From contig OY969425.1 of assembly GCA_963699255.1 (NCBI GenBank), positions 1,620,001 to 1,652,000 of the forward strand: a stretch of 32,000 nucleotides of DNA, read 5' to 3'. This document shows, one piece after another, positions 7,862-32,000 of the stretch. This stretch comes from an uncultured bacterium. GTDB lineage: Bacteria > Margulisbacteria > WOR-1 > CAVSGV01. Both the position numbers and the translations under genes were made by a program. The first letter of the stretch is position 1; each line of letters opens with the position of its first letter. Under the pieces are notes generated by a model that was not told where the DNA came from, made no database searches, and saw nothing but the letters and a program-made list of their open reading frames with translations.

Positions 7862-9853
7862 ATGGAAAAAGATATATTTAAACGATTGACTCCTGAGGAA
7901 GCTTTAAAATTAGCAAGCGAGCCTAAAAAGAAGGGCAAACTCAAGATATTCATCGGCTATGCGCCCGGCGTTGGGAAGACCTGGACGATGCTCAATGAGG
8001 GGAATCGCCGGCTTCAGAGAGGCGAGGATATCGTCATCGGATACGTTGAATCCCATGGAAGGGCGGAGACCGACAAGCAGATCGGCACGCTTCCGGTCAT
8101 TCCCAGAAAGAAAGTAGAATATGCCGGCAAGGTGATGGAAGAAATGGATGCCGACGCGATCATCAAGAGGCATCCGACCACGGCGCTCGTTGATGAAATG
8201 GCCCATACAAATGTTCTTGGATCAAAATACGCAAAACGATATGAAGATATCAATAGGATACTGGAAGCCGGAATAAACGTCATAACCACCCTCAACGTCC
8301 AGCACTTTGAAAGCCTGAACGACACCATCCAGCAGATAACGGGAGTTGTGGTAAGGGAGACCATCCCTGACATGATCGTTGAAAGCGCTGATGAAGTGGT
8401 CGCCGTTGATATCACGGTGGAAGCTCTCCTTAACAGGTTAAAAAGAGGGGACGTTTATAAAAAAGAAAATATCGACAATGCGCTCAGGAACTTTTTCAGG
8501 GAGGGCAACCTGAATGCCTTAAGGGAGATATCCCTGAGGCAGACGGCTCAGGAGGTGGATGAAGAGCTGGAAGAATACATGAAAGCGCACGGGATCGACG
8601 AGACCTGGCAGACGACCGAGCGCATAATGGTATGCATAAGCCCAAGTCCTAACGCGAAGAAACTTATCAGAAGAGGGGCTTTGATAGCAAGGCGTTACCG
8701 TGCTGAATGGTTCGTTGTTGCAGTGGAAAGCACAAGCTTGCTCGCCGCCAAATGGAGCCGTGAAGAAAAGGCGGAGCTGGAAACGAATTTCAAATTAGCC
8801 GGCCAGCTCGGGGCCAAGGCAGTTACCATGTCCGGCAGGAGCATTTCCGATGTGCTGTCGGGATTTGCTAAAGAAAAACACATCACCCAGATAGTCATTG
8901 GCCATTCCGAAAAAAGCATATTCCAATCATACTTTACCGGAACCACCACCAGCAAGCTACTGGGGCACACAAAGAACATCGCGATACATGTTATCCCAAC
9001 CACAAGGGATGTGCCCCCGTCCGCGAACAAGCTTGGCTGGGTCGATACCGCCATATCCGCCGAAATCACGATAAACGATTATTGGAAGATATTGTGGGTG
9101 ACCATCATAATAACCGTATTGAGCCTGATCATTTTGCCTTATGTCGGATACCAGGCGGTGGGATTCGTGTATTTATTGGCGGTGCTTATTTTAAGTTTAT
9201 TCATATCTCTTGTTCCGATAATCATTTTTGCGCTGCTCAGCGCGTTCGTCTGGGACTTCTTTTTCATTCCGCCCTTCGGGACCATCGCGATACTTAAAAA
9301 AGAGGACATAATAATGAGCATCGCGTTCATTATCACATCTATTATCACGGGATATCTTACGAGTAAAATAAGAAGAGATGAAAAGCTGCTTTCCATAAGA
9401 GAGGCAAGGATGGATACGATGTACAGGATCGTATCCGTTATCGCGGCCGCCAGGGACAGGCATTCGTGCATAAAGGACGTTGAAAAAGAAATAGAGACCA
9501 TACTTCCCGGAAAATGCAAAATATTCGTTAAGGAGGATGATATCGAGTTCGAGGGGTTATTGCGCAAAAGCATCGTTAACGATGAAAAAGAATTGTCAGT
9601 GGCCATGTGGGCTTATGAAAAGGGGAGGGCGGCCGGGTGGACATCGGATACTCTGTCGTTCGCAAAAGCGCTATATCTGCCGCTGAGAGGGCCTTCTGAG
9701 ACCGTCGGGGTTTTCTCCTACACGCCCGGAGGAGAAAAAGCGCTTTCTCAAGACGACATGAACATGCTTTTCGCGATATTGAATCAGCTTTCGATATTCC
9801 TTGAAAGGGAGCTTTTCAGGGAGCAGGCCGTTGGAGTTAAAAAGACCGGTTAG
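7862..9853 (+). CDS. kdpD: KdpD-like sensor (KdpD N-terminal domain, Usp, four-TM block, GAF-like region) lacking the histidine-kinase core
   Basis: A Walker-like GYAPGVGKTWTM motif and the TTLNVQHFESLND block are present. A hydrophobic region spans about aa 405-500. The protein ends at 663 aa (...LERELFREQAVGVKKTG) with no H-box or HATPase motifs. The convergent pyrF stop lies 3 nt downstream. Confidence 0.85.
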   Translation: MEKDIFKRLTPEEALKLASEPKKKGKLKIFIGYAPGVGKTWTMLNEGNRRLQRGEDIVIGYVESHGRAETDKQIGTLPVIPRKKVEYAGKVMEEMDADAIIKRHPTTALVDEMAHTNVLGSKYAKRYEDINRILEAGINVITTLNVQHFESLNDTIQQITGVVVRETIPDMIVESADEVVAVDITVEALLNRLKRGDVYKKENIDNALRNFFREGNLNALREISLRQTAQEVDEELEEYMKAHGIDETWQTTERIMVCISPSPNAKKLIRRGALIARRYRAEWFVVAVESTSLLAAKWSREEKAELETNFKLAGQLGAKAVTMSGRSISDVLSGFAKEKHITQIVIGHSEKSIFQSYFTGTTTSKLLGHTKNIAIHVIPTTRDVPPSANKLGWVDTAISAEITINDYWKILWVTIIITVLSLIILPYVGYQAVGFVYLLAVLILSLFISLVPIIIFALLSAFVWDFFFIPPFGTIAILKKEDIIMSIAFIITSIITGYLTSKIRRDEKLLSIREARMDTMYRIVSVIAAARDRHSCIKDVEKEIETILPGKCKIFVKEDDIEFEGLLRKSIVNDEKELSVAMWAYEKGRAAGWTSDTLSFAKALYLPLRGPSETVGVFSYTPGGEKALSQDDMNMLFAILNQLSIFLERELFREQAVGVKKTG

Positions 9854-19981: not shown

Positions 19982-21175
19982 ATGTTCTCATTTCAAACAA
20001 AACTATCGATGCTTCGGGCCGTTTTGACGAAAAGATCGCCATTCTACATCCAGTTCTATATCTCAAAGGCGTGCAACCTGGAATGCAAGATGTGCAACAT
20101 AGTGGAGGCGAACGCCGACCTGAAACCTTTCAAGACGGAAAACATCGAGGCGATCGCGGACAACCTGGTGAGGATCGGCGCCGGGGTGGTCCTTCTTACC
20201 GGAGGAGAGCCGTTCCTTCGGCCCGATATCGATGAGATCGTGCGGATATTCAAAAAAAAGAACCTGGACGTGAGGATGCAGACGGCGGGGCTTATGTCCA
20301 AGAAAGACAAGATCGCGAAATGCGTCGAGAACGGCGCGAGGGACATAAACGTCAGCATAGACTCGCTCGATGAAGAGATGTCGGATTACATAAACGGAGT
20401 AAAGGGTTCGTGGCGCGACGCCATGAAGGCCGTCTCATTTATCTCCCGCACTTTCCCGCGGAAAGACTCCATCTGCGCGCTTGGGTGCGTTCTGTCGCGA
20501 TACAATGTGGATGAGATCGACGCGCTCCTCGACTTCGCGACAAGGATCGGCTGGTGGTTGTCCCTTGTTCCCGTGCACATCACGGAGCCGTCAAATCCCC
20601 TGAATTTCCGCGGATATGACGAATATTTCAAGTTCCGCGAAAAAGACTTTACGAAGGTCAAAGAGCTTATCGACCGGCTGAAGAAAAAGAAAAAGCATGG
20701 AGCCATGCTTTTTGATTCCGATGATTACCTTGATTCGATCTACCACTTCATCAGGACCGGGCACCCCAGCTGGAGGCACAGGGGCGTGTGCGACACGCCG
20801 AACCTTTATTTTGCCATATTGCCTGACGGCAGGTTCGCCCCGTGCTGCGACTTCCGGATGAACGAGGTCGTATACGTCTATGACAGGAGCTTTCCCGACA
20901 TTTACAGGACCGCGAAATTCAGGGATGAAGTGAAGTCCATCGCGAAGAAATGCCCCGGATGCAATTTCGGCAGCTTTCCGGAGATGACGCTCTCAGCCAG
21001 GTCGCTGCCGACGATATTCGAAAGGCTTATGCTCCAGTTCAGGGCGCAGTCCAGAGGGATAAGGCCCATTGAAGAGAGCGAATTGTTCAGGTTGATCGAT
21101 GAAGTAAAAAGCGGCTACGATATTTATAGAACTGGAAGAACATACCCGCACAGGGAAGAAAAGGTGAAGGGCTGA
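19982..21175 (+). CDS. Radical SAM enzyme with a partial SPASM/twitch-like C-terminal cysteine motif
   Basis: A CX3CX2C motif (ACNLECKMC) lies near the N-terminus, and GGEPFL is present. The C-terminal CDTPNLYFAILPDGRFAPC fits Cx12Gx4C and is followed by CPGC. The start could instead be M10 at 20009. Confidence 0.85.
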   Translation: MFSFQTKLSMLRAVLTKRSPFYIQFYISKACNLECKMCNIVEANADLKPFKTENIEAIADNLVRIGAGVVLLTGGEPFLRPDIDEIVRIFKKKNLDVRMQTAGLMSKKDKIAKCVENGARDINVSIDSLDEEMSDYINGVKGSWRDAMKAVSFISRTFPRKDSICALGCVLSRYNVDEIDALLDFATRIGWWLSLVPVHITEPSNPLNFRGYDEYFKFREKDFTKVKELIDRLKKKKKHGAMLFDSDDYLDSIYHFIRTGHPSWRHRGVCDTPNLYFAILPDGRFAPCCDFRMNEVVYVYDRSFPDIYRTAKFRDEVKSIAKKCPGCNFGSFPEMTLSARSLPTIFERLMLQFRAQSRGIRPIEESELFRLIDEVKSGYDIYRTGRTYPHREEKVKG

Positions 21176-21176
21176 A

Positions 21177-23576
21177 ATGTCAAATTTATCCCTGATGATG
21201 AAGCAGGTGAAGAGATACAAGACCGTCGGTTTCGGGACGGGAGGAGGGATACTGAAGCACTCGCTTTATCCATTAAAGCTCTTTAAACAGGTCCTTCCGT
21301 CGAGCGGAGTGATACTCGACCTCGGCTGCGGAGAGGGCATGCTCACAAACCTCCTGTCCGCCGCTCTTCCCGCGGCAAAGATCCACGGCGTGGACCTGGA
21401 CCGGGAGAGGATAGAGAAAGCGGAAAAAGTCGCCGGCCCCACGGCGGACTTCGCGGCAAAGGACATATTGGACTGCGATTTCAGGGGGGCTTCGGCCGCG
21501 ATATTCAACGACGTCCTTCATCATCATCCGAAAGACCACCAGGTCAAGCTTCTTGAAGCGGCCAATAAGTTCCTCGATGACGACGGCCTTCTTGTCCTGA
21601 AAGAAGTGGACATCAGGGACAGGGCCGACGTCGCCTGGACCACTTTCTGGGACAAGAAACTCTATCCGAATGACACCCTTAACTTCAGGGGGAAAAGCGA
21701 ATGGGAAAAGGTGCTTCGCGAGACCGGGTTCAGGGTCATCGGCATTCACAGGGTCAGGCATCCATGGCCGGCATCCAGGACCGTTATCGTCGCCACGAAG
21801 CGCCCAAAACTTGAAAGGATCGAATTCAAAAAGATCGATAACGCGAAAGACCTGACAAAGGTCCTTGTCACCGGGGCGACGGGATTCATCGGCGAGCATC
21901 TGGTGCGCGAGCTGTTAACTAATGGGATGGGCGGCAGGGACGTGCAGATATCGCTCATAGTGCGCGACCCCTGCGGACTTCCGGAAGAAATAAGAAGCAA
22001 CTCCAGGGTGAAGCTGATCGTGGCCGACCTGAAAGACCTCGCGTCAAAGCGCGGAGAACTTTACGGCCATGAATATGTTTATCATCTTGCCTCAAAGGTA
22101 GCTTTCTTTGCCGGCAGGGATATCATGGATGACAACGTTCTTCCGACAAAGAACCTCCTTGAAGCTGTTTCAGGGCCAAAGCTCAAAAGGTTCGTTTACG
22201 CCAGCACCATGGGAGCCCTTGACAGGTCGAAGACCGATGACTGCTCGAGCCCGCTCGACGAGAACTCCCCCGCGCATCCCGTATCTTTCTACGGCAGGAG
22301 CAAGCTCGAAGGGGAGAGGCTTGTAAAAAGCTCAAAGCTTCCCTATACGATAGTCAGGATACCATGGTGCTACGGCCCGGGGATGTCAAAGACGCATCAC
22401 GTGAGGGTGCTCTTTGAAAAACTCATGAAAGGCGGGTTGGTTTTCCGCGTCAACTGGCCGGGGAAAGTGAGCATCATCGAGGCCGGTGAACTCGCGAAGA
22501 TATTCACCGCCGCTGCGGCGGACCCGAAGGCCCTGAACGGGACTTTCTTTGCTTCCGACGGGGAGCCGATCTCTTTTGGAGAGCTCTTCCGTGAGATGGG
22601 ACGCGTCGCGGGCAGGAAGACGGGGAAGATCAATATTCCAGGGACCTTAATATCGATCGCGAAAATATTCAGACTGTTCGCGCCGTTCCAGATTAAATCC
22701 CTTTATATGGACGTGCTGGCGGTCTCGAACTCAAAGCTTGAAGGCATCGGCATCAAAGTTAAAAAAAGAGGAGCGGATTTCCTTCTTCCGCTTGCCAGAT
22801 ACATCAACGAGCAGAAATTCCCGTCAAGATGGCGGTCAAAGGCGCTCATTACTGGCGCCGCGAGCGGGATCGGGTTATCGCTTGCCAAAAAATTCTTCTC
22901 TCTCGGGTACGGCCTCATGCTTGTCGACAGGAACAAGGACCAGCTTGATAATATCGCAGGTGAGCTTAAGGCCGACAGGAGGGTCGCAGACCTGTCCGAC
23001 CGGACTGCCCTGAAAGAACTGTGCGGCGAACTTGTGTCAAAATTAAATGACATCGAGATCGTCGTCAATAATGCCGGTGTCGGAGCCAGGGGGAATTTTG
23101 ATGAAATGGAGTGGAGCGCGATAGAGAGGCTGATATCCGTCAATTGCGTCGCGCCCGCTATGATCAGCCGCGCGTTCATTCCCGTTTTCAGGAAAGCGGG
23201 GAGGGGAACGGTGATCAATGTCGCGTCGTCGTCGGCGTTCCAGCCTCTTCCGTTCATGGCCGCGTATTCCGCTTCAAAAGCGTTCATGCTGAATTTTTCA
23301 CAGGCGGTCTCGGCCGAAAGCCCGGTCGAGATAATTACCGTCTCTCCTTCAGGCACAGCAACGAACTTTCAATCATCATCGGGAGTGAAAAGAGACAAAA
23401 ATGAAAAGCTTCTTGATCCCGATGATGTGGCGGCTCAAATGATTTCAAAGATTGGCAAAGGCAGTAAATACTATATAATAGGCAGTTCGGGTAAGTTCAT
23501 GAGCTTTGTTTCACGCTTATTGCCCGCAGCTGTCCAACTTAAGCTGTGGAAGCGCCTCATGGGCAAAATGAGATAA
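21177..23576 (+). CDS. Triple-domain fusion: class I SAM methyltransferase, extended SDR (NAD-dependent epimerase/dehydratase) and classical SDR
   Basis: The methyltransferase domain has ILDLGCGEGM. The extended SDR has VLVTGATGFIGEH and YGRSK (YxxxK). The classical SDR has ALITGAASGIGLS, NNAG and YSASK. All 799 aa lie in one uninterrupted frame. Confidence 0.8.
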   Translation: MSNLSLMMKQVKRYKTVGFGTGGGILKHSLYPLKLFKQVLPSSGVILDLGCGEGMLTNLLSAALPAAKIHGVDLDRERIEKAEKVAGPTADFAAKDILDCDFRGASAAIFNDVLHHHPKDHQVKLLEAANKFLDDDGLLVLKEVDIRDRADVAWTTFWDKKLYPNDTLNFRGKSEWEKVLRETGFRVIGIHRVRHPWPASRTVIVATKRPKLERIEFKKIDNAKDLTKVLVTGATGFIGEHLVRELLTNGMGGRDVQISLIVRDPCGLPEEIRSNSRVKLIVADLKDLASKRGELYGHEYVYHLASKVAFFAGRDIMDDNVLPTKNLLEAVSGPKLKRFVYASTMGALDRSKTDDCSSPLDENSPAHPVSFYGRSKLEGERLVKSSKLPYTIVRIPWCYGPGMSKTHHVRVLFEKLMKGGLVFRVNWPGKVSIIEAGELAKIFTAAAADPKALNGTFFASDGEPISFGELFREMGRVAGRKTGKINIPGTLISIAKIFRLFAPFQIKSLYMDVLAVSNSKLEGIGIKVKKRGADFLLPLARYINEQKFPSRWRSKALITGAASGIGLSLAKKFFSLGYGLMLVDRNKDQLDNIAGELKADRRVADLSDRTALKELCGELVSKLNDIEIVVNNAGVGARGNFDEMEWSAIERLISVNCVAPAMISRAFIPVFRKAGRGTVINVASSSAFQPLPFMAAYSASKAFMLNFSQAVSAESPVEIITVSPSGTATNFQSSSGVKRDKNEKLLDPDDVAAQMISKIGKGSKYYIIGSSGKFMSFVSRLLPAAVQLKLWKRLMGKMR

Positions 23577-23592
23577 GTTATCGAGGTAAAAT

Positions 23593-24543
23593 ATGGCGAT
23601 TAAAGAAACGCTGGACATAGTTATCCCCGTGTATAATGAAGAGGCCTGCATAAACAGGCTCATGGAGAGGCTTTTGTCCCTCAGGCAAAAAGCGGGGCCC
23701 CTGGAGATAAGCTTCATCTTCGTCAATGACGGCTCCACGGACAGCAGCGCGAAAATGCTCTTCGGCTATGCCGAAAAGCACGACTTCGTGAGGGTCATAA
23801 ATTTCAGCCGCAACTTCGGGCACCAGATGGCGGTAACGGCCGGGATAGACCATGCCGATGCGGATCACGTGGCTATCATCGACTCCGACCTCCAGGATCC
23901 TCCCGAGCTGATACTCGACATGCATAAGAAAGCGAAAGAAGGATTTGACATCGTATACGGGCAGAGGATCGCCAGGCCCGGCGACTCGTTCTTTAAAAGG
24001 GCGACCGCGCATTTTTTCTACAGGCTCATCAATGTAATGTGCGACATTGACATACCGTTCGATACGGGCGATTTTCGCCTTATCAGCAGGCGCGTGGCGG
24101 ACGAGCTGAAAAAAATGAGAGAAAAACACCGCTTCATCAGGGGGATGGTGCCGTGGCTCGGGTTCCGCAGCACGCCGCTGCCTTACAACAGGGAGAAAAG
24201 GTTCGGCGGCGAGACCAAATATCCGTTAAGAAAAATGGTCAGGTTCGCCCTTGATTCCATTTTCTCCTTCTCCAATGTTCCTTTGAAGATCGCCAACTAC
24301 CTGGGGATGGCGATCATATGTATCAGCGTTCTTGTCGGGCTGTTCCTGCTGTATTTAAGGCTCTTCACACGGTTTACCGTCCCCGGCATCACTTCTGTCC
24401 TTCTCGCGCTCATGTTCATCGGCGGGATACAGATAGTCATGACGGGGATAATAGGCGAATACATAGGCAGGATATTCGAGGAGTCAAAAGGCAGGCCCCT
24501 TTATGTCGTGTGGGAGACAAAGAACATCAGCAAAGGCCGCTAG
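23593..24543 (+). CDS. GT2 polyprenyl-phosphate glycosyltransferase (GtrB/ArnC/DPM1-like)
   Basis: IVIPVYNEE, VNDGSTDSS and DSDLQDPPELI motifs are present. Two C-terminal TM helices end in GEYIGRIFEE, which is the family architecture. Confidence 0.88.
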   Translation: MAIKETLDIVIPVYNEEACINRLMERLLSLRQKAGPLEISFIFVNDGSTDSSAKMLFGYAEKHDFVRVINFSRNFGHQMAVTAGIDHADADHVAIIDSDLQDPPELILDMHKKAKEGFDIVYGQRIARPGDSFFKRATAHFFYRLINVMCDIDIPFDTGDFRLISRRVADELKKMREKHRFIRGMVPWLGFRSTPLPYNREKRFGGETKYPLRKMVRFALDSIFSFSNVPLKIANYLGMAIICISVLVGLFLLYLRLFTRFTVPGITSVLLALMFIGGIQIVMTGIIGEYIGRIFEESKGRPLYVVWETKNISKGR

Positions 24544-25350
24544 ATGATGGACCAGGAAAAAACACTCACCAAAGAAGAGATATTCCATGACGGATGGGCG
24601 AACTCGATCGACGTCGACCGGCTTATGGTGGACGAGTCCTTCGAGGCCTGCACTGCCCCGGAGAACAGGCTCATAATGAAAAAGCTCGGCGACGTAAGGG
24701 GGAAGAATATCCTGGAGCTGGGATGCGGCGCGGGCGAGGCGGCGGTCTATTTCGCGAAAAAGGGCGCGCGTGTCACCGCCACCGACATATCGAACGGAAT
24801 GCTGGAAGTGGTCAAGAAGCTGGCGCGCAAGCACGGCGTGGAGGTGGAGACCCGGCAGAGCTATTCGCATACCATGCCGTTCGCCGACGGCACTTTTGAC
24901 ATAGTTTACGCGGCGAATCTTTTGCATCACGTGGACATAGAGAGCACTTTGAAGGAAGCGCGCAGGGTGCTTAAAAATGGAGGAGTTTTTGTGTCCTGGG
25001 ATCCCCTGGAGCACAATCCTTTGATCAAGCTTTACAGGAGGATTGCCACAAAGGTCAGGACCGAAGATGAACACCCCATTAAAACAAGCGACATTAAGAC
25101 CTTTAAGAGAATATTTTCAACGGTCGAGACCGACGCGACCTGGTTCTTTCCTCTGCTGATATTCGTGAAATTCTTCCTGGTCGACAGGATAAGCCCGAAC
25201 TCCGAAAGATACTGGAAGAAGATCATCGTTGAACATGAAAAACTCCAACGCGCGTACAATTTCCTGGAGAAGATGGATAAGGTCTTGTTCTCCGTTTTTC
25301 CTTTCATGAAGCGTTTCTGCTGGAACATCGTCGTGTTCGGGACAAAATAA
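24544..25350 (+). CDS. Class I SAM-dependent methyltransferase
   Basis: ILELGCGAGEAAVYFAKKGARVTATDIS (motif I) and the FDIVYAANLLHH...LKNGGVF segment are present. The start abuts the GT2 stop. Confidence 0.75.
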   Translation: MMDQEKTLTKEEIFHDGWANSIDVDRLMVDESFEACTAPENRLIMKKLGDVRGKNILELGCGAGEAAVYFAKKGARVTATDISNGMLEVVKKLARKHGVEVETRQSYSHTMPFADGTFDIVYAANLLHHVDIESTLKEARRVLKNGGVFVSWDPLEHNPLIKLYRRIATKVRTEDEHPIKTSDIKTFKRIFSTVETDATWFFPLLIFVKFFLVDRISPNSERYWKKIIVEHEKLQRAYNFLEKMDKVLFSVFPFMKRFCWNIVVFGTK

Positions 25351-25352
25351 CC

Positions 25353-27125
25353 ATGAAAAACTATTTTAGATTATTGAAATACGTTAAGCCCTACACAGGA
25401 CTGCTGTTGCTGGGATTCCTATGCTCTACCGCGCTTTCTTCAATAAGTGTAATGGTAATACCTATTGTTGGGAAACTCTCGGAAGCTATCGGAGTGAAGA
25501 ATTTCGCGCAATTGAACATGTTTATAGCCGCGGCGATAGGGCTTTATTTTTTAAGGGGGATTTTTTCTTTCGGGCAGGCCTATTTTATCTCTCATGCCGA
25601 TCAAGGCATAACAAAAGATCTCAGGCTTCAAGTATTTGAGCATCTCCAAAACCTCTCCTTGGATTTTTATTCAAAGACCAGGACCGGCGAAATAATAACG
25701 ATAATGATGAATGACATCAATATGATGCAGAATGTCATCATTGATTCCTTTACTTCCATTATCCCAAATATCATGACGATAGTAGGAGTGGCCGGATACC
25801 TTCTTTTTCTGGACTGGCGGTTAACGCTTGTTTCAATATTCATGCTTCCGGTCATCACCATCGTTTCAACTGGTTTCAGCAATCAGGCACGAGCTGTGGC
25901 AACGCAGACCCAGGAAAAAATATCCGACATAACTTCCGTTCTGCATGAAGTGGTGACCGGGGCAAAGATCGTGAAATCTTTTACCATGGAAAAGGAAGAA
26001 ATCAAAAAGTTTGAACATGTGTCAGAACATATGAAGCAATTCGCACTGAATGCGAGCATTTTAAGGGCTGCTCAAGCCCCGTTATTCAATTTCCTGCAGG
26101 CTATCGCCGCTGTGATAGTGATATGGGTCGGCGGGTTTGAGATCGTTTCAGGCAGGATTACCGCCACCAATTTAATTGCGTTCTTTTCTGGTGTACTTAT
26201 GCTTGGTGATCCCATCGGTGGCTTAAGCGGGCTGAATGTCACCATCCAAATAGCTTTGGTTTCCGCTAAAAGGGTTTTTAATGTTCTTGACACAAGGCCA
26301 ACCGTAAGCGAGGCAACAGATGCAAAAGATGTCAGCATTTTAAACGGAGAGGTTGTTTTTAATGACGTATCCTTTAAGTATGAGTCAAACAACGATCTTG
26401 TCCTTAGGAACATAAACATGAGTTGCAGGGCGGGTGAGGTCATCGCCATAGTGGGACATTCGGGTGCGGGAAAGAGTACTCTGGTCAGCCTGATCCCGCG
26501 GTTTTATGATCCTTTAAAAGGGGAAGTCATTATAGATGGCCATAATGTCAAAGAATATAAGATTATGTCTTTCAGGAAATTCATCGGGATAGTTCCCCAG
26601 GAAACGCTGCTTTTTTCCGGCACGATTAAGGATAACATAGCTTATGGAAGGATGAGTGCGACTGATAAAGAGGTAGAGGAAGTGGCAAAGATGGCGAATG
26701 CTCATGATTTTATCATGTCATTTCCTGAACAATACAACACTATCATCGGGGAGAAAGGCATCAGATTGTCCGGCGGGGAGCGTCAGCGCATAGCGATAGC
26801 AAGGGCTTTTTTAAGGGATCCGAAGATATTGATACTTGATGAAGCCACGTCATCGCTTGATTCAGAATCTGAAAATCTTGTGCAGCAGGCCTTGGAAAAA
26901 TTGATGAAGGGCAGGACCACATTTGTCATCGCTCACAGGTTGTCTACCGTTAAATTCGCGAACAGGATCATAGTAATTGATAAGGGTGCAATCGTTGAAG
27001 AAGGGACGCATGAGGAATTGATCAATAAAGAAGGTGGCACTTATAAAAAACTTCACGATATGCAATTGGGAAAATCGGAACCGGGAAACATAGTGGACAA
27101 CTTGGGCAAAGTTTACGCAAATTAA
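25353..27125 (+). CDS. ABC exporter with fused permease and ATPase (MsbA/PglK-type half transporter)
   Basis: 590 aa with an N-terminal six-TM-type domain. Walker A (GHSGAGKST), the signature motif (LSGGERQRIAIARA) and Walker B (ILILDEATSSLD) are present. Confidence 0.92.
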   Translation: MKNYFRLLKYVKPYTGLLLLGFLCSTALSSISVMVIPIVGKLSEAIGVKNFAQLNMFIAAAIGLYFLRGIFSFGQAYFISHADQGITKDLRLQVFEHLQNLSLDFYSKTRTGEIITIMMNDINMMQNVIIDSFTSIIPNIMTIVGVAGYLLFLDWRLTLVSIFMLPVITIVSTGFSNQARAVATQTQEKISDITSVLHEVVTGAKIVKSFTMEKEEIKKFEHVSEHMKQFALNASILRAAQAPLFNFLQAIAAVIVIWVGGFEIVSGRITATNLIAFFSGVLMLGDPIGGLSGLNVTIQIALVSAKRVFNVLDTRPTVSEATDAKDVSILNGEVVFNDVSFKYESNNDLVLRNINMSCRAGEVIAIVGHSGAGKSTLVSLIPRFYDPLKGEVIIDGHNVKEYKIMSFRKFIGIVPQETLLFSGTIKDNIAYGRMSATDKEVEEVAKMANAHDFIMSFPEQYNTIIGEKGIRLSGGERQRIAIARAFLRDPKILILDEATSSLDSESENLVQQALEKLMKGRTTFVIAHRLSTVKFANRIIVIDKGAIVEEGTHEELINKEGGTYKKLHDMQLGKSEPGNIVDNLGKVYAN

Positions 27126-27138
27126 GATATAAAAGAGG

Positions 27139-28512
27139 TTGGTTAGATTGAGCAGAAAAATCATTTTTACGGGAGAAAGAATAATCCCGGATCAAGTTGA
27201 CGATGATCTGTATAATGAGCATATTTCGCGCTATCTTTTTGCCAAAAGATATTTAAAAGGGAAAGTTGTTTTAGATGCTGGCTGCGGGGTGGGTTATGGA
27301 GCATATGAAGCCCGAAAAGCCGCAAAAAAGATATATGGGATTGACATATCAAAGGAATCTATCGAATATGCGAAGCGAAAATATTCTTCTACAAATATTT
27401 GTTTTGAAGTTGGAGATGTTAAAAAGCTAAGATTCAAAGACAATTTCTTTGATGTGATCCTTTCCTTTGAGGTAATAGAGCATCTCTCAAGGCAGGATAT
27501 TTACCTTGAGGAAATGAGGAGGGTTCTGAAGAAAAAAGGCTTGTTCTTTGTGTCTACCCCGAACAAAATCTATTATTCTAAAGAAGGGCGACCAAAAAAC
27601 CCTTTTCATACAAAGGAGTTTAATTTAAAGGAATTCAGCGGAATATTATCCAAACAGTTTAAATATGTATCAATATACAACCAGAACCACAATGCCGTAA
27701 TATCGATCTCCCCACAAAAACAGGGCACTTCCACGGCTGACATTGAAATTTGTGACGCGTCAAAAATCTCGCCGATAATGGATAATTATTTTATCGCGGT
27801 TTGTTCAAATGCCCCTATCGGCAAAAAAACGCGAAAAGACTTTATTTATTTGCCCCATAAGGGGAACATTATTTATGAAAGGACAAAATGGGCAAGGAGC
27901 CTTGATGAAAAACTTAAAAGAGGTGCTAAGTATATAGAAAAACTGCAGAAGGGGTTTGATGAAAAAGCCGCATGGGCAAACAATTTAAACAAAGAATTGA
28001 CGATAACGAAGAAAAATGCGGCAAGGTTACGCAAAGAATTTGATGAGAAAGCCGTATGGGCGAACAGTTTAAACAAAGAATTGACGATAATGAAGAAAAA
28101 TGCGGCAAGGTTACGCAAAGAATTTGATGAGAAAGTCGCATGGGCAAACAGTATAAACAAGGAGCTTGCTGAATCGAAGGGATACGCGGAGGGGTTAAGG
28201 ATAGGGCTTGATAATAAATCTCTGCTTGTGGAGAGCCTGAGGAAGGAATTAGACAGGATAGAAGAATTGAACGCAGAACTTGATTGTGAGCAATGCAGGA
28301 TTAAAAAGTCCCTATTTTATAAAGTGCATCTTTCATTTTTGTTTGTGTCAAATAATATCCATCGGCTTTTGGCCAGAAATAGGATTGTAAATTCTGCTGC
28401 TTCGACCGTTTTTCTTTTTGTTTATTTTGTCTTTAAAAATATTTTCATTCCATTTAGGTTGAATAAAGCAAAAAGCATCGCCAAAAAGGTGTTCTTGGAT
28501 GACGCCCGATAA
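27139..28512 (+). CDS. SAM methyltransferase with a long repeat-containing coiled coil and a hydrophobic C-terminus (WbdD-like architecture)
   Basis: FTGERIIP and VLDAGCGVGYGA methyltransferase motifs are present. A coiled coil spans about aa 240-400. The hydrophobic tail is FLFVSNN...VFLFVYFVFKNIFIPF. The ORF-track start is TTG 27139, but TTG 27148 has better RBS spacing. Confidence 0.75.
   Translation: MVRLSRKIIFTGERIIPDQVDDDLYNEHISRYLFAKRYLKGKVVLDAGCGVGYGAYEARKAAKKIYGIDISKESIEYAKRKYSSTNICFEVGDVKKLRFKDNFFDVILSFEVIEHLSRQDIYLEEMRRVLKKKGLFFVSTPNKIYYSKEGRPKNPFHTKEFNLKEFSGILSKQFKYVSIYNQNHNAVISISPQKQGTSTADIEICDASKISPIMDNYFIAVCSNAPIGKKTRKDFIYLPHKGNIIYERTKWARSLDEKLKRGAKYIEKLQKGFDEKAAWANNLNKELTITKKNAARLRKEFDEKAVWANSLNKELTIMKKNAARLRKEFDEKVAWANSINKELAESKGYAEGLRIGLDNKSLLVESLRKELDRIEELNAELDCEQCRIKKSLFYKVHLSFLFVSNNIHRLLARNRIVNSAASTVFLFVYFVFKNIFIPFRLNKAKSIAKKVFLDDAR
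27955..28167 (+). repeat. Tandem 84-bp (28-aa) repeat, about 2.5 copies, inside the methyltransferase coiled coil
   Basis: Copies start at 27955, 28039 and 28123. Copies 1 and 2 differ at 5 of 84 positions by my alignment. The encoded unit is FDEKAAWANNLNKELTITKKNAARLRKE. A degenerate copy precedes them. Confidence 0.9.
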
Positions 28513-29698
28513 AAGATTAAACATATTGTTCGTAACTGCAATGCTTCCGAGCAAAATGCACGGTGGCGGTGTTGTTATGCTTAATCTGATAAAGGAATTG
28601 TCAAAGTACAACGACATTTCACTGATCTCTTTTATTGATTTTGAAAAAGAAAGAGAATATATAAAGAACATAAAGCCATATGTTAAGAAAATCAGGATAT
28701 TTGAGAGGTGGTCGCAGAAAAAGCTTTTGGACAGGGGGGCGGATCTTGTTCCAGACGGCATCAGGACCGACTTCTATTGTCCGGAATTGGCGGAAGAAGT
28801 CAGCATTGAATTAAAAAGGAAAAAATATGATATTCTTCAGTTCGAATATTTACAAATGGCGATATACAAAGGCCTGTGTAGGATACCGAAAAGAATGAAA
28901 GTATTGATAACTGACCATGAAACAATTTGCGAGGCGTTCAGGCAAAGGATCAAGCTTTTTCCCCTCGGCATGTTCTGGAGCGATGTTAAAGAGTATTTGA
29001 GGTTTTTCCACTATGAAACCTCAGTATTAAAGCATTTCTCAAAGGTTTTTGTTTTTACCGAACAGGACGCGCTGAACCTGCTTAAATATTCCCCTGATAT
29101 AAATATTGCTATCCATCCTCTGGGGGTTGATTTTGATTATTTCTCAAGGGAGCTTGCGAAGGAGAAATTTCCTTCCCTTATATTTCTTGGCAATTATGAG
29201 CATTTCCCCAACCGGGAAGCTGTGGTTAATTTTAGCAAAAATCTATTCCCCAAGATCAAGGAAAAGTATCATGACATTAAATTTTATATTGTCGGTCATA
29301 TGCCTAGGAAAGAAATTTTGAAGCTTGCGGAAAACGATAAAAATATAATTGTGACCAATACGGTGGAAGATGTAAGGCCGTTCATACAGAGAGCGAGTAT
29401 ATTTGTGGCCCCGATCAAAAGCGGGACAGGCATGAGGTTAAAGGTTCTTGAGGCAATGGCCTCAAAAAAAGCAATTGTTTCCACGCGTCTTGGGTGCATG
29501 GGGATAAAGGCGGAGGACAAGAAGCATCTGCTGATAGCGAAAAATGATAATGAATTTATCGAAAACATTCTTTTATTACTTGAAAATGTACAGTTAAGAA
29601 AAGAACTGGGGCGTAATGCTTTTGAACTGGCAAAAAGTTATGACTGGAAAAATATAGCTCAGCAAAGGCAGAATGTATATTTAAAGCTTATGAAGTAA
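28499..29698 (+). CDS. Glycosyltransferase family 4 (GT-B fold)
   Basis: The N-terminus ILFVTAMLPSKMHGGG and the C-terminal SGTGMRLKVLEAMASKKAIVST (EX7E-type) are present. It overlaps the upstream gene by 14 nt. Confidence 0.85.
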   Translation: MTPDKRLNILFVTAMLPSKMHGGGVVMLNLIKELSKYNDISLISFIDFEKEREYIKNIKPYVKKIRIFERWSQKKLLDRGADLVPDGIRTDFYCPELAEEVSIELKRKKYDILQFEYLQMAIYKGLCRIPKRMKVLITDHETICEAFRQRIKLFPLGMFWSDVKEYLRFFHYETSVLKHFSKVFVFTEQDALNLLKYSPDINIAIHPLGVDFDYFSRELAKEKFPSLIFLGNYEHFPNREAVVNFSKNLFPKIKEKYHDIKFYIVGHMPRKEILKLAENDKNIIVTNTVEDVRPFIQRASIFVAPIKSGTGMRLKVLEAMASKKAIVSTRLGCMGIKAEDKKHLLIAKNDNEFIENILLLLENVQLRKELGRNAFELAKSYDWKNIAQQRQNVYLKLMK

Positions 29699-29707
29699 GG
29701 AGACGCT

Positions 29708-31081
29708 ATGGAAACGCTGCCGATATCTATTGTAGTATTAAACTGGGACGGAAAGCATTTATTAGAAGCTAATCTTCCTTCAGTAATTAAAGCCGCAAGT
29801 TACTATCCAAATACCAGAGAAATTATTGTGGTTGACAATGGCAGTACGGATGACAGTGTTGCGTTTCTAAAATCCGCTTATCCGCAAATTAAGGTTCTCG
29901 AATTGCATAAAAATCTGAGATTCACAGGGGGGAACAACGCGGGAGTAGAATATGCAAGCGGTGATATTGTTATTTTATTGAACAATGACATGAGGGTTTC
30001 GGAAAACTTTATCCTGCCCCTCGTGGAAGGGTTCAAATATAATGACAATGTTTTTGCCGTCTCATCCCAAATATTTTTTCTGGATAAGGACAAGAGAAGG
30101 GAAGAGTCCGGATTGACAAAGGCCTGGTTCAGGAAGGGGTGGCTGTTGACCGGCCATGTCGTTGAACAGAAAATAATTGACAAGATGAACAATTATGAAT
30201 TCACTTTCTGGGCCGGCGGGGGATCAACCGCCTTCGACAGGAAAAAATTTCTTGGGATAAAACTGGATACTCTTTACGACCCGTTTTATTTGGAGGACAT
30301 AGACATTTCTTATCAGGCATGGAAAAGAGGATATGTTATCTTATTCTCGAAGGGCAGCGAAACATACCATATGCACAGGGCTACAAATCGTGTTAAGTTC
30401 GGGGATGATTATATTGACGCAATAAGGAAAAGAAACACTTTTCTGTTCATCTGGAAGAACATTACCGCTCCCGATCTGATCCGGCAGCATTTATTCCGTT
30501 TGCCCCACATTATATCCAGTTCCATTAAAGAAGGGGGGATTGGCGAGCTATTTATTTTTTTTAAAGCTTTGATGAAATTACCTGAATGCATGAAGAAAAG
30601 ATATGAAAGTAAAAAGTATTATAAGCTAAGTGATGAGGATATTTTTAATGTATTTTCTGCGGATGGCAAACCCAAAAACACCAATTCTATTGATTTTTCT
30701 TTAGGTGATTTTAATGAAAACATTGGCGGTGACTGGCATAACAGAGAACTAAATTATCGATGGGTAGGGAAAAAATCGGTTTGTTATCTTTTTTCTGAAG
30801 ATAGAATGAAAAAGCTGATAGTGAAGGGTTATTGTGGGATACCGGAGCCGATTTTTAAAGGGAGAGAATTTATTTTGTCAATATTCATTAACAACAAACT
30901 GATGGTAAGAGAACCATTGCAAAATGGAGAGATCAATATTGAGTGTGATATCCATCAAATTAAAAAGCAGATGAATGAAATTGTTTTTAGTATGAATAAT
31001 ACTTTTAATTCAAAAAAAGCAGGCATTGGTGAAGATGAGAGAGATTTAGGCGTTATTATAAATAAGGTCGAAATGATTTAG
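29708..31081 (+). CDS. Glycosyltransferase family 2 with an extra C-terminal domain of about 150 aa and unknown function
   Basis: IVVLNWDG, VVDNGSTDDS and ILLNNDM are GT-A motifs. The C-terminal region (GGDWHNRELNYRWVGKKS...) resembles the GW..E...RW accessory domains seen on some glycan enzymes. Confidence 0.85.
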   Translation: METLPISIVVLNWDGKHLLEANLPSVIKAASYYPNTREIIVVDNGSTDDSVAFLKSAYPQIKVLELHKNLRFTGGNNAGVEYASGDIVILLNNDMRVSENFILPLVEGFKYNDNVFAVSSQIFFLDKDKRREESGLTKAWFRKGWLLTGHVVEQKIIDKMNNYEFTFWAGGGSTAFDRKKFLGIKLDTLYDPFYLEDIDISYQAWKRGYVILFSKGSETYHMHRATNRVKFGDDYIDAIRKRNTFLFIWKNITAPDLIRQHLFRLPHIISSSIKEGGIGELFIFFKALMKLPECMKKRYESKKYYKLSDEDIFNVFSADGKPKNTNSIDFSLGDFNENIGGDWHNRELNYRWVGKKSVCYLFSEDRMKKLIVKGYCGIPEPIFKGREFILSIFINNKLMVREPLQNGEINIECDIHQIKKQMNEIVFSMNNTFNSKKAGIGEDERDLGVIINKVEMI

Positions 31082-31261: not shown

Positions 31262-32000
31262 ATGAATTTTGAAGACTTTAAATATATTATTGTGGGTAGC
31301 GGTTTTTGGGGCAGTGTAATTGCAGAAAGAATTGCATCGGTTTTGAATGAACATGTTGTGATTCTTGAAAGGCGAAACCATGTAGGCGGGAATTCGTTTT
31401 CAAAAATACATAAAGAAACAGGGATTGAATACCATTGTTATGGGACGCATGTATTTCACACTTCTAATAAGAAGGTGTGGAACTATATAAGAACTTTTTC
31501 TGATTTTACTAATTATCAGCATAAAGTTTTTATTCAACACAAAAATCGCATATACAGTATGCCCATTAACTTGGCGACAATTAATGATTATTACGGGCTT
31601 AATTTAATGCCGTCTGAGATAAAAGCTTTTTTAAAAAAAGAGATAAATCGATCTGGCCATGTTTCATCTCCGTCAAATTTAGAAGACAAGGCAATATCAT
31701 TAATTGGTAAGCCCCTTTACGATTCCTTTATTCGAGGATATACATTTAAGCAATGGGGAACCGACCCTAAAAAATTACCCCCCGAAATATTTACTCGCCT
31801 CCCTGTTAGAGATAATTACAATATGAATTATTTTAATGATCCTTATCAAGGATTGCCTGAGTACGGTTACGCCAAATTATTTCAAAATATCCTGCTCAAT
31901 AAAAACATTCACGTCATGCTCAATACCGATTATTATAATGTCAAACACAAAATACCGAAAAGATGCAAGGTTATTTTTACTGGCGCAATAGATAAGCTTT
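31262..32000 (+). CDS. glf: UDP-galactopyranose mutase, 5' partial (runs off the window)
   Basis: I translated it by hand. It has IIVGSGFWGSV (FAD GxGxxG), ERRNHVGGN, YGTHVFHT, GYTFKQWG and RLPVRDNYNMNYFNDPYQGLP, which closely parallel E. coli Glf. It has no stop before 32000, so it is absent from the ORF track. Confidence 0.92.
   Translation, partial: MNFEDFKYIIVGSGFWGSVIAERIASVLNEHVVILERRNHVGGNSFSKIHKETGIEYHCYGTHVFHTSNKKVWNYIRTFSDFTNYQHKVFIQHKNRIYSMPINLATINDYYGLNLMPSEIKAFLKKEINRSGHVSSPSNLEDKAISLIGKPLYDSFIRGYTFKQWGTDPKKLPPEIFTRLPVRDNYNMNYFNDPYQGLPEYGYAKLFQNILLNKNIHVMLNTDYYNVKHKIPKRCKVIFTGAIDKL

Follow-up and report, generated by a model that had tools for sequence, protein, structure and literature searches.

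The locus and its genes

The window, which is the whole 32-kb stretch of DNA that was analysed, carries near its end a gene for a methyltransferase joined to a long predicted coiled coil. This gene lies between a gene for an ABC exporter and two glycosyltransferase genes. The features discussed below are as follows.

24544-25350: second, stand-alone methyltransferase near the methyltransferase-coiled-coil gene (Pfam)
25353..27125, + strand: MsbA-type ABC exporter (TIGR02203, orthologues, synteny)
27148..28512, + strand: methyltransferase-coiled-coil gene, 454 aa from TTG 27148; the program-called ORF runs from TTG 27139
27148..27852, + strand: class I SAM-dependent methyltransferase domain, N-terminal, about aa 1-235 (Pfam, AlphaFold2, invariant columns)
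27853..28314, + strand: predicted coiled-coil spacer, 22 uninterrupted heptads, about 154 aa (heptad register, shuffle test, AlphaFold2)
27868..28287, + strand: five in-register 28-aa units, aa 244-383 of the 457-aa ORF, at 27868-27951, 27952-28035, 28036-28119, 28120-28203 and 28204-28287 (register printout, unit HMM)
27955..28160, + strand: near-identical 84-bp tandem repeat, 2.5 copies (Tandem Repeats Finder)
28288..28509, + strand: putative C-terminal membrane-association region (C-terminus alignment, Kyte-Doolittle, AlphaFold2)
28499..29698, + strand: GT4-type glycosyltransferase, candidate polymerase module (Pfam Glycos_transf_1 / Glyco_trans_1_4)
29708..31081, + strand: GT2 glycosyltransferase, candidate second polymerase module (Pfam)
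31262..32000, + strand: glf (UDP-galactopyranose mutase), 5' part, cut by the window end (TIGR00031)

The ORF that starts at TTG 27139 encodes 457 aa. TTG 27148 is the likely start codon, and TTG 27139 is less so, because the sequence AAAGAGG (27132-27138) stands 9 nt ahead of TTG 27148 and the resulting 454-aa product is identical to a database protein (P0001; NCBI/ENA). The first 14 nt of the GT4 gene lie within the methyltransferase gene. The glf match covers model positions 2-249 of 378 in TIGR00031 (E 1.9e-59), and the presence of this gene suggests that the polymer contains galactofuranose. A tri-domain protein containing a methyltransferase is also encoded near the methyltransferase-coil gene (Pfam). 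Nothing further came from scans of the window for Rfam families, tRNAs, and promoters or terminators.

The methyltransferase domain and the C-terminal tail

The first-pass annotation described an N-terminal SAM methyltransferase followed by a long heptad-like region and a hydrophobic tail, and this outline agrees with the analysis. The Pfam models Methyltransf_31, 11 and 25 match at aa 40-173 with E values of 1e-25 to 1e-22, and AlphaFold2 gives a pLDDT above 90 across most of the domain. On an alignment of 120 homologues, the domain bears invariant residues specific to the family. The invariant columns include the GER..P...DL.NEH..RY.FA region, and further invariants are E108/E111/H112 (FE.IEH), STPN, and N151/P152/H154. 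PDB sequence and fold searches with the methyltransferase returned generic small-molecule and sugar methyltransferases only. The coil begins about 5 residues past the end of the domain, and no Pfam or NCBIfam match was found for a kinase domain of the O9a type between the methyltransferase and the coil.

An alignment of C-termini places a basic amphipathic stretch in the tail, KKSLFYKVHLSFLF, as the counterpart of the family's SRWVKLGRKVGLGP. The hydrophobic stretch ASTVFLFVYFVFKNIFIPF is 19 residues long (28399-28455), with a Kyte-Doolittle mean of 1.69. Two tail helices, 417-432 and 440-448, are modelled by AlphaFold2 at low pLDDT. The tail segment probably does not span the membrane, because in an orthologue the same segment sits between the coil and a cytoplasmic-type GT4.

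A predicted coiled-coil rod built from 28-residue units

The 154-residue spacer keeps one heptad register throughout (a = IALIFALAFALAFALALVLNQL, d = RLGLKLTLKLMLKISLKLILIK) and contains no proline. Hydrophobic residues occupy 33 of the 44 a and d positions, a count above that of every shuffle (21.0 +/- 1.6, with a maximum of 30 in 20,000). AlphaFold2 models residues 241-410, about 170 residues, as a single helix. The coiled-coil propensity and the structure model are thus both in line with the earlier reading. Since the model is of a monomer, oligomerisation of the rod into a coiled coil is something that we infer. At 0.15 nm per residue, the predicted length of the spacer is about 23 nm.

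The five 28-aa units lie in register within this rod, and the fifth and last is degenerate. A unit HMM recognises four units in the window protein and 1-10 in homologues. Each unit copies a family module, E-[LF]-[ED]-x-x-x-x-W-A-x-x-L-[ND]-x-E-L, and the consensus over 192 units is dominated by W8 (97%), A9 (95%), L12 (97%), and L26 (97%). The strong conservation of W-A-x-x-L in each unit suggests that the rod does more than inert spacing.

Tandem Repeats Finder reports the DNA repeat with a period of 84, 2.5 copies, 92% matches, and a score of 363. Between copies 1 and 2 there are 5 mismatches in 84 nt, 2 of them synonymous and 3 non-synonymous. The third copy is similar in part, differing from the other two at 25-26 of 84 nt (identity 0.68-0.69 in the unit register). 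The longest exact match under an 84-nt shift is 44 nt, at 28008-28051. The copy number and the five mismatches had been read correctly in the first-pass annotation; the array itself ends at 28160 rather than at 28167 and is part of the longer series of five units. DNA identity is 0.94 between units W1 and W2, as against 0.67 for the orthologous pair W0-O0. To judge from its sequence, the 84-bp repeat arose recently, when one 28-aa unit was duplicated in frame.

Family, gene neighbourhood, and variation in rod length

The family comprises about 2,190 clusters at 50% identity. Its members are mainly Acidobacteriota, and it also occurs in an anammox genome, in Brevibacillus, and in Margulisiibacteriota. 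Directly upstream of the homologue, and on the same strand, 65 of 76 genome loci carry a full-length Wzt with its Wzt_C carbohydrate-binding module (CBM); the records of L002 and L003 list Wzt_C (PF14524). A two-module GT2-GT4 enzyme lies downstream of the homologue in 56 of 67 loci. Some family members are a single polypeptide, MTase-coil-GT2-GT4, in which the start of GT2 varies from residue 427 to 848. The GT4 and GT2 proteins of the window are 28% and 48% identical, respectively, to the GT4 and GT2 modules of the L003 GT2-GT4 enzyme that follows its homologue. By comparison, the gene linkage and the fused forms favour the capping methyltransferase on a coiled-coil spacer that had been proposed earlier. 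The window GT2 also has a C-terminal domain of 157 aa that recurs in L006 and L008 and has no Pfam match and no PDB sequence match. It was considered as a relocated cap-binding module and dropped on these null matches and a pLDDT of 33 in a single-sequence AlphaFold model.

The protein collection holds only two close relatives, P0002 and P0003. P0003 breaks off at residue 255, just where the coil region begins, and P0002 alone is usable for a comparison of repeat number. P0002, the closest orthologue (L001), is an in-frame MTase-coil-GT4 fusion; its catalytic domain is 82% identical, and its coil is exactly 56 aa, or two units, shorter than that of the window protein. A JGI metagenome scan for close relatives returned distant methyltransferases only (<=49% identity over the core), and the best match in a GTDB genome scan was 41%. 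The contig of a relative with a 93%-identical GltX stops where the glycan block of the window starts.

Rod length across the family ranges from 98 to 367 aa. Coil lengths taken modulo 7 fall within four of the seven classes (0, 1, 4, 5) in 101 of 104 cases. Recent internal duplications of the coil were found in 36 of about 116 relatives, and duplications of 46 or 53 aa are common among them. Strict quantisation of rod length in steps of 28 or 7 aa was considered for the whole family and was rejected on the length classes and the 46- and 53-aa duplications. The 46- and 53-aa duplications in some relatives also mean that 28 aa is not a universal step. The rod had been called possibly adjustable in the first-pass annotation, and this view is borne out by the shorter orthologue, the near-identical units, and the duplications in relatives. 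The design of a capping enzyme on a helical rod is already known; the new point appears to be that the rod gains and loses whole units. The near-identical copies here, together with an orthologue two units shorter, look like a length change caught in the act.

Comparison with known chain terminators

To our knowledge, demonstrations of coiled-coil polysaccharide rulers are confined to a few enterobacterial systems. Capping at a given length has reportedly been shown by experiment for E. coli O9a WbdD and Klebsiella O12 WbbB. According to two papers (PMC5082667, PMC11231755), the coil of WbdD sets chain length, with insertions lengthening and truncations shortening the modal length. An extended coiled coil is described as a "characteristic marker" of terminator proteins, and in all examples of terminated O-polysaccharides the CBM of the transporter binds the terminal moiety (PMC11231755). 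The functional class of coiled-coil terminators in ABC-transporter-dependent glycan assembly includes WbdD, WbbB, ORF6-O7, and ORF7-O4; the window protein likewise has a candidate terminating domain, joined to one end of its extended predicted coil. No Wzm/Wzt or CBM-bearing transporter was seen within the 32-kb window, which ends inside glf; the cap-reading step of known systems is therefore missing from the window.

[quoted passage not shown] The O9 locus of E. coli HS reads wzm-wzt-wbdD-wbdA, and homologues of the family likewise lie in the order wzt-terminator-polymerase. The window protein is kinase-free, as is O8 WbdD, which has been termed a "methyltransferase-only homologue" (PMC3482155), whereas O9a WbdD is a methyltransferase-kinase. 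A BLASTP comparison with E. coli HS WbdD gave 25% identity over 95 aa (E 3e-5), and hhalign aligned 93 columns of the 120-sequence family profile with WbdD at a probability of 94.8%. WbdD was absent from the best 60 PDB sequence matches and the best 50 fold matches. The window protein is thus no homologue of WbdD beyond the generic SAM-binding core. The coil of WbdD is non-repetitive and has prolines, in contrast to the 28-aa units with conserved W-A-x-x-L seen here. The hydrophobic tail of WbdD is also less pronounced, and the wbdD gene adjoins wzm and wzt, unlike the methyltransferase-coil gene in the region visible here.

K. pneumoniae O12 WbbB and O7 ORF6 are single polypeptides with the terminator and two polymerising GT modules at opposite ends of the coil. 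This layout is matched by the MTase-coil-GT2-GT4 members of the family, and the closest orthologue has the form MTase-coil-GT4. In the window, by contrast, the three activities are encoded by separate, translationally coupled genes. The terminator of WbbB is a beta-Kdo transferase, and that of the window would be a methyltransferase. ORF6(O7) differs in that it also comprises a kinase and a CBM-like domain and that both of its GT modules are GT2 (PMC11231755).

A proposed mechanism of capping and length control

The gene probably encodes the chain-terminating methyltransferase of a polysaccharide assembly complex at the cytoplasmic face, with the rod as its length ruler. This reading draws on the domain architecture, the unbroken heptads, the gene linkage across the family, the fused forms, and the whole-unit difference from the orthologue, and it is well supported by comparison rather than by experiment. 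The polymer probably resembles an O-antigen, contains galactofuranose, and is built on a polyprenol carrier. The amphipathic and hydrophobic C-terminus would anchor the protein at the membrane's inner face, beside the polymerising GT4 and GT2, and the methyltransferase would be held about 23 nm out in the cytoplasm by the 154-residue coiled coil, a putative oligomer. Chains that reach the catalytic domain would be O-methylated at the non-reducing end, the putative methyl acceptor, and shorter ones would not. Such a methyl cap would halt extension, and the modal length would be set in this way. Unequal recombination or slippage between the 84-bp copies would add or remove about 4.2 nm and leave the helix phase unchanged.

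A broader proposal joins two parts. The 28-residue W-A-x-x-L unit would be a dedicated, recombination-prone length quantum, and strains of this and many other phyla would gain or lose 84-bp units and so shift the modal length of their capped surface glycan by about 4 nm at a time, a contingency-type change acting on a molecular ruler. In addition, export of the capped polymer in this Margulisiibacteriota lineage would do without a CBM-bearing Wzt and might go through the adjacent MsbA-type ABC. We regard the two parts taken together as doubtful.

Alternative readings and the upstream ABC exporter

A window without a CBM-bearing Wzt would also suit an enzyme that methylates its glycan internally or at every repeat and is neither terminator nor ruler. 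Its coil would only oligomerise the enzyme and scaffold the glycosyltransferases, and the differences in length would be neutral drift. The second methyltransferase (24544-25350) and the tri-domain methyltransferase protein fit such an account, since with other methyltransferases nearby methylation in the region need not be confined to a cap; repetitive coils also expand and contract readily, and relatives show offsets of 46 and 53 aa. This account nevertheless seems unlikely in view of the tight linkage, across phyla, to a Wzt with a cap-reading module (65 of 76 loci). The fusions place the methyltransferase at the end of the rod opposite the glycosyltransferases, and modification of residues during their addition is disfavoured because this geometry is poor for it. 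Selection on an intact rod may also be argued, because coil lengths keep to a heptad or half-heptad lattice (101 of 104) and the coil of the orthologue is exactly two units shorter. That the substrate is a lipid, a protein, or a small molecule, and that the location among glycan genes is incidental, is very improbable. The nearest solved structures and curated families are indeed small-molecule, lipid, and quinone methyltransferases (UbiG, TleD, RebM, phosphoethanolamine N-methyltransferase), but these matches span only the generic class I core, and linkage to Wzt and GT2-GT4 as well as covalent fusion to glycosyltransferases would be hard to explain without a glycan.

For the route of export, the first-pass annotation had proposed an unusual pairing of the ruler with a PglK/MsbA-type exporter, so that the upstream ABC would flip the finished, capped, lipid-linked polymer in place of Wzm/Wzt. 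Its gene stops 22 nt short of the methyltransferase gene, within a dense array of genes on one strand, the same adjacency is found in the orthologous contig L001, and the GC3 of the ABC gene, 0.49, is closer to that of the low-GC block (0.40-0.45) than to that of the backbone (0.60-0.72). The lack of Wzm/Wzt in the 32 kb points the same way, but a transporter could sit just past the window, which ends inside glf. The adjacencies in the window and in L001 are not independent evidence either, because they share one ancestral arrangement. The protein is a fused TMD-NBD exporter (Pfam ABC_membrane and ABC_tran) that shares its class with PglK / Wzk-type flippases and groups with MsbA. Its best-scoring family is TIGR02203 (MsbA), with 538.5 bits over positions 2-570 of 572, below the cutoff of 602, and NF050066 (PglK) stands at rank 23 with 219.9 bits against a cutoff of 1000. 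Orthologues at 48-78% identity, tracking GltX, occur throughout Margulisiibacteriota and in Saganbacteria. One relative (L167) carries the ABC after rsmH in the syntenic position; the genes downstream are DUF6580/TonB genes, and no methyltransferase is among them. In another (L169) the order is lpxB-ABC-lpxB-related-GT4-GT9, with LPS-type neighbours (core heptosyltransferase-type genes), and in a third (L168) the ABC precedes a different glycan gene set. We judge the ABC to be the housekeeping lipid A-core flippase of the lineage, with nothing to tie it specifically to the capped polymer; the special pairing is not supported, and a role of this ABC as the polymer flippase is quite improbable.

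Implications

The probable terminator and ruler described here belongs to a large, uncharacterised family that crosses phyla, in which a recognisable 28-residue unit makes up the putative ruler, whose length varies almost four-fold. The family would offer naturally occurring length variants with which the ruler model could be tested outside Enterobacteria, and the number of units may be a simple handle for engineering glycan length. Genes annotated as "class I SAM-dependent methyltransferase" that have the MTase-coil architecture may be annotated as probable glycan chain terminators, and an MsbA gene beside such a locus should not be read as the polymer exporter.

Domain architecture of the methyltransferase-coil protein

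The methyltransferase-coil gene is preceded by an ABC exporter gene and followed by two glycosyltransferase genes and a truncated glf.

Forward-strand features from 19982 to the end of the window
19982-25350, +, four tightly packed genes in the rsmH-msbA interval: a radical SAM/SPASM protein, a 799-aa methyltransferase-epimerase-SDR tri-domain protein, a PgfS/ArnC-like polyprenyl-phosphate GT2 and a 268-aa methyltransferase
25353-27125, +, ABC exporter, full-length MsbA equivalog match
27139-28512, +, methyltransferase-coil ORF as given in the ORF list
28499-29698, +, GT4, overlapping the methyltransferase-coil gene by 14 nt
29708-31081, +, GT2, downstream of GT4
31262-32000, +, 5' two-thirds of glf (UDP-galactopyranose mutase; TIGR00031, E 1.9e-59), running off the window end

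The likely start codon is the TTG at 27148, 9 nt downstream of AAAGAGG, which yields the 454-aa protein deposited at NCBI/ENA (P0001). The first-pass annotation had described an N-terminal SAM methyltransferase and a hydrophobic tail, and both were found. Pfam places a class I SAM methyltransferase domain at aa 40-173 (E ~1e-25), and the tail carries a hydrophobic stretch of 19 residues (Kyte-Doolittle mean 1.69) in addition to a basic amphipathic one. An AlphaFold2 model built on a 120-sequence alignment shows a confident methyltransferase domain and a single continuous helix at residues 241-410, with a pLDDT above 90 at residues 250-330 that drops to ~55 near residue 400.

In the closest orthologue, P0002 (contig L001), a 14-nt difference between L001 ~1275-1430 and window 28456-28520 removes the stop codon, and the methyltransferase-coil protein is fused in frame to GT4 in a polypeptide of 791 aa. 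The two loci are 82% identical in the methyltransferase domain, 78% in GT4 and 80.5% in GT2. Because this fusion sets the tail between two cytoplasmic-type domains, we infer that the tail is an interfacial anchor and not a membrane-spanning helix.

The coiled coil and its repeat unit

The 154 residues after the methyltransferase domain hold one heptad register over 22 heptads without a single proline. The residues at heptad position a are IALIFALAFALAFALALVLNQL, and those at position d are RLGLKLTLKLMLKISLKLILIK. Hydrophobic residues occupy 33 of these 44 positions, compared with 21.0 +/- 1.6 (maximum 30) when the same residues were permuted in 20,000 rounds. A register so far above the shuffles, together with the AlphaFold2 helix, bears out the heptad-like sequence first noted.

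Tandem Repeats Finder reports an array at 27955-28160 with a period of 84 bp (2.5 copies, 92% matches, score 363). Between copies 1 and 2 there are 5 mismatches over 84 positions (2 synonymous, 3 non-synonymous), and the longest identical run at a shift of 84 nt measures 44 nt. The period, copy number and mismatches first noted for this repeat stand, and each copy would lengthen the rod by ~4.2 nm at 0.15 nm for each of 28 residues, in line with the first estimate. The extent of the repeat had been drawn too narrowly: the array is the youngest layer in a set of five in-register 28-aa units that occupies aa 244-383.

The protein belongs to a family of 2,190 members at E <= 1e-30, in a scan that covered all 1.84 billion cluster representatives. 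The N-terminal 240 residues are highly conserved among 120 homologues and carry family-specific invariant residues. Their C-terminal part is a coil of highly variable length, closed by a short, basic and amphipathic helix (consensus SRWVKLGRKVGLGP). The 28-aa unit reappears across the family, with 1 to 10 detectable units per homologue and the consensus E-L-E-x-x-N-x-W-A-x-x-L-N-x-E-L-E-E-R-R-A-R-I-x-E-L-Q-x; among the 192 units detected, W8, A9, L12 and L26 are each conserved in 95-97%. Between the end of the catalytic domain and the terminal helix lie 98 to 367 residues, depending on the homologue. Coil lengths fall within four of the seven classes modulo 7 in 101 of 104 cases, which fits a rod whose hydrophobic seam must keep phase.

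Plasticity of coil length

Repeat number differs between relatives. The coil of P0002 is shorter by exactly 56 residues, equal to two units or eight heptads, and its last unit resembles a chimaera of two window units, with the head of one and the tail of the other. Such a hybrid would be the product expected of in-register unequal recombination. At the DNA level, identity is 94% between units 1 and 2 of the window and 67% for the flanking orthologous unit pair; the window duplication is therefore younger than the divergence of the two genomes. Internal 28-aa windows that match another copy at 50% identity or more occur in 36 of ~116 family proteins, with offsets of 28, 56 or 84 residues in 14 of them and of 46, 53 or 35 residues in the other 22. 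These observations together indicate that coil length is evolutionarily plastic. The suggestion of a coil adjusted through 28-aa units is supported for the window and its orthologue, but the 28-residue quantum is not family-wide. By analogy with the WbdD and WbbB experiments, polymer length would track coil length.

In many acidobacterial members, e.g. P0054, P0083, P0091 and P0112, the near-identical duplications inside the coil measure 46 or 53 residues (4 modulo 7) and not a multiple of 28, so coil expansion employs more than one repeat length.

Gene neighbourhood and the ABC exporter

Homologue neighbourhoods were compared at 80 loci from GTDB species representatives, where the homologue usually sits in a conserved set of genes. 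The source taxa are mostly Acidobacteriota (Bryobacteraceae, Solibacteraceae, Terriglobia), joined by an anammox MAG and the cultured Brevibacillus migulae. At 65 of the 76 loci with enough sequence, the gene directly upstream on the same strand encodes a full-length Wzt, and the Wzt of loci L002 and L003 carries the Wzt_C domain (PF14524). Downstream of the homologue, 56 of 67 loci encode a two-module GT2-GT4 enzyme of ~780 aa. Some family members are single MTase-coil-GT2-GT4 polypeptides, in which GT2 starts between residues 427 and 848. The window GT2 and GT4 are 48% and 28% identical to the modules of the acidobacterial GT2-GT4 enzyme; the methyltransferase and the two glycosyltransferases therefore form the same module, rearranged.

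At L007, L010-L012, L014, L015 and L024, whose named members are Candidatus Versatilivorator or Versatilivoraceae, an ORF of ~1050-1120 aa that is not Wzt precedes the methyltransferase-coil gene, on the opposite strand at L010. The one such ORF examined, of 1049 aa at L011, has no Pfam match. The domain formed by the C-terminal 157 aa of the window GT2 (30608-31078) turns up again in L006 and L008, ~5 kb further downstream than the homologous methyltransferase, and has a weak counterpart in the last part of the 1049-aa L011 protein. Pfam and PDB sequence searches with this domain gave no matches, and its single-sequence AlphaFold model is unusable (pLDDT 33).

The first-pass annotation had seen an unusual pairing of the ruler with a PglK/MsbA-type exporter. 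MsbA is the top-scoring family for this protein at 538 bits, under the cutoff of 602, and PglK, with a cutoff of 1000, reaches 220. The GltX relatives of the window genome place it in Candidatus Margulisiibacteriota, and ABC orthologues with 48-78% identity occur throughout Margulisiibacteriota and Saganbacteria. The relative L167 shares the window order PCMT-arginase-GltX-S49 peptidase-...-RsmH-ABC; downstream of its ABC gene lie DUF6580, TonB and TonB-dependent receptor genes and no methyltransferase. In L168 the ABC gene is upstream of a different glycan gene set, and in L169 its neighbours are lpxB on one side and an lpxB-related gene on the other, with GT4 and GT9 genes beyond the latter. 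From these scores, orthologues and contexts, we conclude that the exporter is the MsbA of the lineage and that the adjoining region is a variable glycan locus. The unusual partnership is most likely a gene-neighbourhood artefact. No exporter for the capped polymer is visible within the window, which stops inside glf.

Composition partly supports the variable-locus reading. The backbone and the genes that precede the ABC gene (19982-25350) have a GC3 of 0.60-0.72, with a sharp step at ~25350; msbA is intermediate and uniform at 0.49, and the genes for the methyltransferase, GT4 and GT2 lie at 0.40-0.45. The low-GC block from the methyltransferase to glf was probably acquired horizontally, and its polymer probably contains galactofuranose. 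Since rsmH and msbA adjoin directly in L167, the genes at 19982-25350 represent a second inserted glycan-modification block.

Other differences among relatives were seen. Downstream of GT2 in L001, a polytopic membrane protein gene replaces glf. In L165, a close relative with a GltX 93% identical, an IS200-type Y1 transposase (1744-2184) lies between the S49 peptidase gene and rsmH. This contig stops ~750 bp past rsmH, after one more partial gene, where the window glycan block starts; the region therefore varies among strains or breaks assemblies. Elsewhere in the window, a 663-aa KdpD homologue (7862-9853, +) has KdpD N-terminal, Usp and DUF4118 domains and no HisKA/HATPase histidine-kinase match at E <= 1e-5.

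Relation to known chain terminators

In terminated O-polysaccharide systems, the transporter CBM binds the terminal moiety, and an extended coiled coil is described as a characteristic marker of the terminator (PMC11231755). In E. coli O9 and Klebsiella O12, this coil is reported to work as a molecular ruler (PMC11231755; PMC5082667). The order wzm-wzt-wbdD-wbdA of the E. coli HS O9 locus matches the order at the family homologue loci, and the MTase-coil-GT2-GT4 polypeptides share the layout of WbbB and ORF6(O7). In contrast, BLASTP aligns only 95 residues of the SAM-binding core of E. coli HS WbdD with the window protein, at 25% identity, and the profile comparison between WbdD and the family spans 93 columns. 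The window protein has no kinase domain, and its proline-free coil of 28-aa units differs from the WbdD coil, which is non-repetitive and contains prolines. Judged by sequence, it is no WbdD homologue in the usual sense. It would nonetheless fit, functionally and architecturally, among the coiled-coil chain terminators of ABC-transporter-dependent glycan assembly. The end of the WbdD coil (L170 17966-20092, residues ~590-606), ...IHRSRSWRMTKGYRYLG, recalls the family ...ASRWVKLGRKVGLGP, the (A)SRWVKLGRKVGLGP basic amphipathic motif. The resemblance may reflect a shared membrane or partner-binding element, or chance, and is too weak to build on.

Parts of the family-level picture may already be in print, in the earlier bioinformatic survey of terminators and transporter CBMs by Mann, Kimber and Whitfield (Glycobiology 2019), as it is cited in PMC11231755. 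On balance we favor, with fair confidence, a chain-terminating methyltransferase on a coiled-coil spacer, partnered with the adjacent GT4 and GT2. What goes beyond the routine is a putative ruler made from a recognisable repeat unit, with direct evidence of recent gain or loss of whole units.
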